Shown: positions 31,920 to 32,004 of the stretch, in pieces | Numbering within the stretch: the stretch's first letter is position 1 | How the letters are laid out: every line of letters starts with the position of its first letter | Assembly: GCA_013329045.1 (NCBI GenBank) | Contig: DUKZ01000002.1 | Coordinates: forward strand, 30,662 to 94,661 | DNA from: Candidatus Woesearchaeota archaeon | GTDB taxonomy: Archaea > Nanobdellota > Nanobdellia > Woesearchaeales > UBA9989 | Direction of reading: 5' to 3' | DNA length: 64,000 bases | Position numbers and translations under genes: made by a program | The notes under the pieces: model-generated | What the model saw: the letters and a program-made list of their open reading frames with translations, nothing else | Told to the model about the DNA's origin: nothing | Databases searched by the model: none

Positions 31920-32004
31920 GGCAACACTATTTTGGCGCAGATCGCGTGGCCTCCACGCGAAGGCTTCGGCACGAAACCGGTCTGCCTGCCATGGTAGTGT
32001 TGCC
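31920..32004. other. GC-rich structured element bounded by perfect 10-bp inverted repeat (candidate ncRNA or miniature IR element)
   Basis: GGCAACACTA (31920-31929) pairs with TAGTGTTGCC (31995-32004); internal hairpin TCGCGTGG-CCT-CCACGCGA (31942-31960) and further GC stems; lies in AT-rich intergenic space. Confidence 0.3.

Follow-up and report, generated by a model that had tools for sequence, protein, structure and literature searches.

The window analysed here, a stretch of 64 kb, derives from a Rifle-groundwater Woesearchaeote, and its flanking proteins also place it on contig JAGVYQ010000002.1 of assembly GCA_018303165.1. Groundwater metagenomes are the source of further contigs with these genes, and the nearest relatives of its CDC48/VAT ATPase carry the annotation Candidatus Woesearchaeota. 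The VAT gene (889 aa, 29218–31887, plus strand) ends at a stop codon that is the true C-terminus, common to relatives, and an 85-nt GC-rich element begins 32 nt past this stop. Downstream of the element lies a gene for a lysine-rich protein of 109 aa, followed by GatD, cupin and GatE, with the plus strand being the coding strand of both neighbours of the element. The features of the locus are given below, with TATA-like sites scored by a position weight matrix (PWM).

31888–31900, plus strand: VAT terminator T6CT6, directly after the VAT stop codon
31914–31919, minus strand: T6 run (A6 on the plus strand), directly past the closing stem of the element, similar to an archaeal oligo-T terminator
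31920–32004, minus strand as the best guess: 85-nt element with a closing stem, a 3x3 internal loop, a second stem with a 2-nt bulge, a three-way junction and two triloop hairpins
31920–31929: left arm of the closing stem P1, GGCAACACTA, in perfect pairing with 31995–32004
31933–31941: left arm of the second stem P2, TGGC+GCAGA, with its partners at 31981–31985 and 31988–31991
31942–31960: 8-bp hairpin TCGCGTGG-CCT-CCACGCGA, stacking directly on P2
31962–31978: 7-bp hairpin GGCTTCG-GCA-CGAAACC, in which the C.A of the plus strand at the third pair becomes a G.U wobble on the minus strand
31981–31991: right arm of P2, TCTGC-CT-GCCA, with the 2-nt bulge at 31986–87 on the plus strand (AG on the minus strand)
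31995–32004: right arm of P1, TAGTGTTGCC, the perfect 10-bp reverse complement of GGCAACACTA
32047–32058, minus strand: weak TATA-like site CGTTTTACTATA (PWM 6.1), from which transcription would begin near 32026, some 22 nt ahead of the element; not significant alone
32073–32084, plus strand: TATA box of the lysine-rich gene, CCTTTTTATATC (PWM 11.7), 49 nt before the ATG
32128–32457, plus strand: lysine-rich ORFan gene, 109 aa, sharing with the element the variable VAT-GatD slot

The context described in an earlier note on this DNA was borne out for the VAT terminator upstream and the AT-rich spacer, whilst its label "histone-like" for the downstream gene found no support, the product being a lysine-rich ORFan with no Pfam match and no homologue among 5.8 billion proteins. 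This protein has a very high content of Lys, Ala and Val, begins with a hydrophobic N-terminal segment (VVIGAAVIGALAYGAA) and is not paralogous to the other 109-aa protein encoded upstream. A minus-strand ORF of 155 aa antisense to its gene was rejected as a shadow ORF, which overlaps the GatD start.

Read along the plus strand, the order of the element is GGCAACACTA TTT TGGC GCAGA TCGCGTGG CCT CCACGCGA A GGCTTCG GCA CGAAACC GG TCTGC CT GCCA TGG TAGTGTTGCC, and the GC-rich element of 85 nt with a perfect 10-bp terminal inverted repeat, as noted earlier, was confirmed at 31920–32004. Four further inverted repeats are nested without conflict inside the P1 10-mers, giving a single branched structure. 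P1 comprises 10 bp and P2 4+5 bp (TGGC/GCCA, 31933–36 with 31988–91; GCAGA/TCTGC, 31937–41 with 31981–85), the junction leaves 0, 1 and 2 nt unpaired, both hairpin loops measure 3 nt, and 33 of the 34 pairs are Watson-Crick. Structure prediction also upheld the 8-bp hairpin and GC stems as parts of a multi-helix junction, a three-way junction with a minimum free energy (MFE) of about -47 kcal/mol. The ViennaRNA values were -47.0 kcal/mol (z -5.9) for the plus strand and -46.9 kcal/mol (z -6.4) for the minus strand, with none of 200 shuffles being as stable on either strand, and DNA parameters returned the same architecture (z -6.0). The fold is an autonomous domain, which is kept when embedded in longer transcripts of either strand, including the full intergenic transcript of the plus strand. 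In the plus-strand fold of the element, two additional G.U pairs lengthen P1 to 12 bp. Since the inverted repeats are nested and free of conflict, they indicate a folded single strand (RNA or DNA) rather than operators for dimeric proteins. A 21-codon ORF (MAGRPVSCRSLRVEATRSAPK, 31927–31992, minus strand) lies entirely within the element, lacks a ribosome-binding site and probably just reflects the GC-rich sequence. When a translated ORF spanning the element was searched as a protein, no relatives were found.

Scanning the 64 kb in about 6,400 windows of 90 nt on both strands revealed that the element locus ranks first in stability, at -44.5 kcal/mol, where the mean is -19.3 and the standard deviation 5.2. 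The next most stable of these 90-nt windows (around 11.7–11.9 kb, 31.1 kb and 56.0 kb) all fall within long ORFs, and the element is the only one outside an ORF among the top windows inspected. Its GC content is 0.61, with 0.25 in the spacer to its left and 0.32 to its right; a GC island in AT-rich intergenic DNA is a classic signature of RNA genes. The 10-bp terminal repeat by itself is unremarkable, because 37 inverted pairs with 9-nt seeds no more than 150 nt apart occur in the 64-kb window and the P1 10-mer is no commoner there than in shuffles. The complete nested fold is what is remarkable.

The TATA-box matrix was derived from 39 regions upstream of window genes; across the window, scores of at least 10 occur at only 17 positions and scores of at least 6 at 0.26% of positions. 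The strong TATA box of the lysine-rich gene, about 70 nt downstream of the element, predicts a start near 32105 and a 5′ UTR of about 23 nt, and the ribosome-binding site of this gene is GAGGTGA. On the plus strand upstream of the element, no TATA-like site scores above 3.7, so transcription of this strand would need read-through past the VAT terminator. The minus strand offers, besides the weak site at 32047–32058, the strong TATA box itself, which scores 5.4 when read in that direction and is preceded by the purine-rich GGAAAATG; this second site is likewise not significant alone, and to judge from the sequence the box at 32073–32084 could be bidirectional.

The best clue to the strand is the T6 run directly past the minus-strand closing stem. 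With 18 runs of T6 or longer per 8,867 intergenic nt, we estimate the chance of one abutting the stem within 0–3 nt, on either strand, at about 0.01–0.02. Transcription units in the window commonly end in tracts of T5 or longer, and the T6 of the element and the T6CT6 of VAT are 13 nt apart, a layout resembling that of two convergent transcripts whose ends stand back to back. On the plus strand, no T-tract follows the element. The strand clues as a whole are mixed, with the G.U wobble favouring the minus strand, the two extra G.U pairs of P1 favouring the plus strand, and the MFEs being equal.

Ten other assembled copies of the locus, from eight other assemblies, are base-identical over the stretches compared; nine of them hold the full 240-nt spacer exactly, and the tenth (L121) is identical over its aligned part, which ends at 32200. 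As the copies show no sequence variation and the relatives contain no homologue, the fold has no covariation support. The closest VAT relatives reach 65–67% identity over the full length, with none above about 67% full-length identity among 5.8 billion proteins, and conservation of the fold was not found in them, the element being absent. None of 80 VAT-bearing GTDB genomes has the same downstream context, and neither blastn nor nhmmer gave a match to the element in the 80 VAT loci.

The content of the VAT-GatD interval was also compared among relatives. The closest syntenic relative (L095) lacks the element and has a VAT-GatD gap of 63 nt (12668–12730), with a T5CT6 run 3 nt past the VAT stop and no GC-rich element. 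In L122 and L123, the slot holds a small minus-strand ORF of 92–109 aa (L122, 3082–3606), and in L096 it holds two unrelated genes, NIF3 and a 477-aa gene (12674–15073). Unrelated minus-strand genes directly follow VAT in L097 and in L124 and L125, with GatD-GatE lying upstream on the other strand in L124. Because its content differs in every relative examined, the interval (31888–32491) is, on the gene orders compared, a variable slot in this clade, filled here by the element and the ORFan gene, both specific to this lineage.

Searches for other copies of the element or its termini, a check proposed in the earlier note, found none in the window, the flanks, the related loci or the collections searched. 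A covariance model with the element as its only input sequence matched nothing else in the window. It gave no match in about 930 kb beyond the window either, covering 83 related loci (731 kb in total), 160 kb more and, with filters off, 43 kb including about 20 kb of flank beyond the window ends, which was taken from the same contig on one side and from a near-identical JGI contig on the other. No copy was thus detected across about 890 kb of related archaea and other loci, and the 64-kb window holds no second or partial copy. A metagenome scan for the two termini separated by 45–75 nt gave 23 matches with interiors that are all unrelated, close to a chance expectation roughly estimated in the mid-teens; the scan is a weak test, the source locus itself not having been returned. 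IMG/VR scans yielded chance matches in high-GC phage only, and blastn against phage and plasmid collections gave no match. The element is a one-off of a single population, real and of unproven function.

The Rfam covariance-model scan likewise gave no family match: none of the 4227 models of Rfam 15 matched the element at the gathering threshold, and at E≤10 the 351 nt of 31800–32150 produced five chance-level matches (E 0.58–9), none of which aligns to the element fold. A tRNA, including split, permuted and intron-bearing forms, was rejected, as ARAGORN finds only 42775–42864, the Rfam tRNA model matches 42776–42864 and 51485–51587 and not the element even at E≤10, and two loops of 3 nt provide neither a 7-nt anticodon loop nor a T loop. 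Single-hairpin archaeal H/ACA sRNAs resemble the element in length (60–90 nt) and in a GC-rich lower stem of 9–10 bp. However, the 3′ flank of the stem is AGG on the plus strand and UUU on the minus strand with no ACA/ANA box, the 3x3 internal loop leaves no pseudouridylation pocket, and there are no tandem G.A pairs and hence no K-turn.

C-box-like GGATGA at 31882–87 (overlapping the VAT stop codon) and 32006–11, together with D-box-like CTGA at 31911–14, give the flanks a likeness to archaeal C/D sRNAs and explain the sole Rfam snoRNA match near the element, which is of the C/D type and at chance level (E=8.5). These motifs are in the wrong order, D...C, with no D box after the second GGATGA, a spacer of 23 nt and the CUGA 6 nt from the stem, and a C/D box sRNA was rejected. 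A bulge-helix-bulge, which needs a 3-nt bulge on each strand around a 4-bp helix, was discarded: whichever strand is read, TGGC/GCCA (4 bp) is bounded by the 3x3 loop at one end and by just one bulge, of 2 nt, at the other. Small ribozymes were ruled out by the lack of an unpaired core in the junction. Inspection of the sequence and fold also ruled out a hammerhead-like core, attC-like sites and archaeal SECIS elements. A replication origin or ORB cluster was also dismissed, as the cumulative GC skew rises smoothly over 28–36 kb without a switch, no orc1/cdc6 gene is adjacent, and the inverted repeats enclose GC-rich and not AT-rich DNA.

Two further kinds of known structure resemble the element in layout. 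Like intrinsic or oligo-T terminators, its minus strand has a GC-rich stem followed by T6, back to back with the VAT oligo-T, but the 85-nt fold is branched and not a short-loop hairpin, and upstream there is no gene on the minus strand whose transcription it could end. Hairpin-plus-T terminator-like sites number 22, against 18.7 ± 4.1 in shuffles, which is no enrichment in this genome. The element does not belong to a class of such sites. The other kind is the Hgc RNAs, which Klein, Misulovin and Eddy are said to have described in 2002 as GC-rich small non-coding RNA genes forming GC islands in AT-rich archaeal intergenic DNA. Like them, the element is a GC island set in AT-rich spacer, is closed by a long stem between its 5′ and 3′ ends, has oligo-T directly past the 3′ end and shows a lineage-restricted distribution. 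It differs from them in lacking a match to Hgc or any other Rfam family, a clear TATA box at -26 and a homologue in any relative.

As the best explanation, we tentatively propose that the element may be a lineage-specific structured RNA of the minus strand, or the 3′ domain of one. The fold at z of about -6, the GC island, the autonomy of the domain, the abutting T6 and the G.U wobble argue for it, as do the two weak minus-strand sites (6.1 and 5.4) at usable distances, compared with a best plus-strand score of 3.7. Weighing against it are the weakness of these promoter candidates, the mixed strand clues, the absence of a homologue in relatives, and the pairing itself, since 33 of 34 Watson-Crick pairs with 3-nt loops are as typical of DNA palindromes as of selected RNA. 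The stable sRNA suggested earlier is accordingly retained as a candidate, with an exceptional fold and a T6 next to the stem in its favour, and no convincing promoter and no covariation on the other side.

Under the minus-strand proposal, a stand-alone small RNA of about 90–110 nt would be made; alternatively, a transcript of about 140 nt that leaves the lysine-rich gene's promoter region divergently might have the element as its stable 3′ domain. The T6 past the closing stem would end transcription, back to back with the oligo-T terminator of the convergent VAT gene, and the three-way junction with its U-tail would provide a nuclease-resistant 3′ end, possibly bound by an Sm-like protein. Any specific function would be carried by the less structured 5′ part or the loops. 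A more far-reaching version, in which a new three-way-junction sRNA with a U-tail was acquired together with the putatively membrane-anchored lysine-rich ORFan, is divergent from it and acts with it as an RNA partner or an antisense/divergent regulator, is conceivable but rather unlikely.

The main rival, and a serious one although we regard it as unlikely, is that the element is a palindromic relic at the DNA level, either a solo MITE-like or hairpin-type mobile fragment or the scar of the insertion of the ORFan gene, with no RNA function of its own. It would explain the near-total Watson-Crick pairing and the 3-nt loops, it agrees with a GC content foreign to the surrounding spacer, and the element shares with the ORFan gene a slot with different content in each relative examined. 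The MITE-like insertion proposed earlier stood as far as its outward form goes, the element being intergenic and foldable, with perfect 10-bp terminal repeats and a size of 85 bp within the MITE range of about 50–500 bp. Signs of mobility did not turn up in the sequences searched. The element is single-copy wherever this was checked, with no second copy or fragment in the window, the flanks of about 20 kb, the 890 kb of other loci, IMG/VR, the phage and plasmid collections or, as a weak test, the metagenome terminus scan. Its flanks CTGAAAAAA and AGGATGAGA (GAAAAAA and AGGATGA) contain no direct repeat of 2–9 bp as a target-site duplication, and no cognate transposase is encoded nearby. Furthermore, the interior, in contrast to MITEs and REP-like palindromic elements, consists of fully nested hairpins; MITE interiors are normally without perfect nested hairpins.

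A structure acting on the plus strand is improbable. It would serve as a 3′-UTR stabiliser or as a read-through insulator for VAT transcripts that escape T6CT6, parting the expression of VAT from that of the downstream gene, and the short distance to the VAT stop, the shared coding strand, the equally stable fold with its 12-bp P1 and the persistence of this fold in the full intergenic transcript are in line with it. However, the VAT terminator precedes the element, the closest syntenic relative has T5CT6 in nearly the same place without a hairpin, no T-tract follows the element on this strand, hairpin-plus-T sites are not enriched, and the relatives manage without the element. The riboswitch-like leader that the earlier note suggested for the basic protein gene, or any other regulatory 5′ leader, is very improbable: although the element lies upstream of the lysine-rich gene on the same strand and the CCUCC in its plus-strand loop is partly complementary to the GAGGUGA ribosome-binding site, the strong TATA box stands downstream of the element and the predicted mRNA therefore excludes it, Rfam gives no riboswitch or other cis-regulatory match at E≤10, the almost fully paired junction has no room for a ligand pocket, and neither the gene nor the element has homologues that would give conservation across genomes.

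To our knowledge, very little is known about the non-coding RNAs of DPANN archaea, whose genomes are small and which are mostly uncultured. If the minus-strand RNA were confirmed, it would be an orphan structured RNA and a small addition to this picture, and also a case in which a variable slot of the genome gave rise to a new gene along with a new RNA. If transcribed, it would be a lineage-specific small structured RNA of a kind familiar from archaea and not a new category. Coming from a single population and having no relatives, the element cannot anchor a family or a mechanism, and it is of practical use chiefly as a candidate to be looked for in the Rifle metatranscriptomes already available.

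Several minor observations were made on the neighbouring genes and on the rest of the window. In another Woesearchaeote (L010, 4925–5065), VAT and a convergent gene are parted by two strongly nested hairpins with A-/T-run flanks, GCAAAAAATTTCGC...GCGAAATTTTTGC and AAAAATGCGT...ACGCATTTTT, whose joint fold has -72.8 kcal/mol (z -7.5) and which look like bidirectional intrinsic-terminator-like structures. Such structures are not the norm for archaea, in which termination needs only the T-tract. The VAT protein itself has 889 aa here compared with about 756–765 aa in most matches; similarly long matches (about 830–934 aa, e.g., P0002, P0003, P0010 and P0016) align over 100% of the query, and those of 756–765 aa over about 44–50% of it in the best local alignment, which suggests that VAT in this clade has extra sequence between its two AAA domains. 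The ATG of GatD at 32492 lies about 25 nt past the TATA-like TTTATTAA (window positions 32458–32494), which suggests that GatD has a promoter of its own just past the ORFan gene and is transcribed as a leaderless mRNA. A nucleotidyltransferase (NTP_transf_2/Polbeta) gene and a HEPN gene, paired about 5 kb upstream (25726–26888; L087, 1–671), are probably a toxin-antitoxin module, and a related nucleotidyltransferase/HEPN pair lies near VAT in the relative L095. The window contains two tRNAs, both predicted to bear introns. The tRNA-Arg(CCT) at 42775–42864 has an intron of 16 nt, and the one at 51485–51587 on the minus strand, missed by ARAGORN, matches the Rfam tRNA model with 48.1 bits, carries a 37-nt insertion in the anticodon region and is probably an intron-containing archaeal tRNA.
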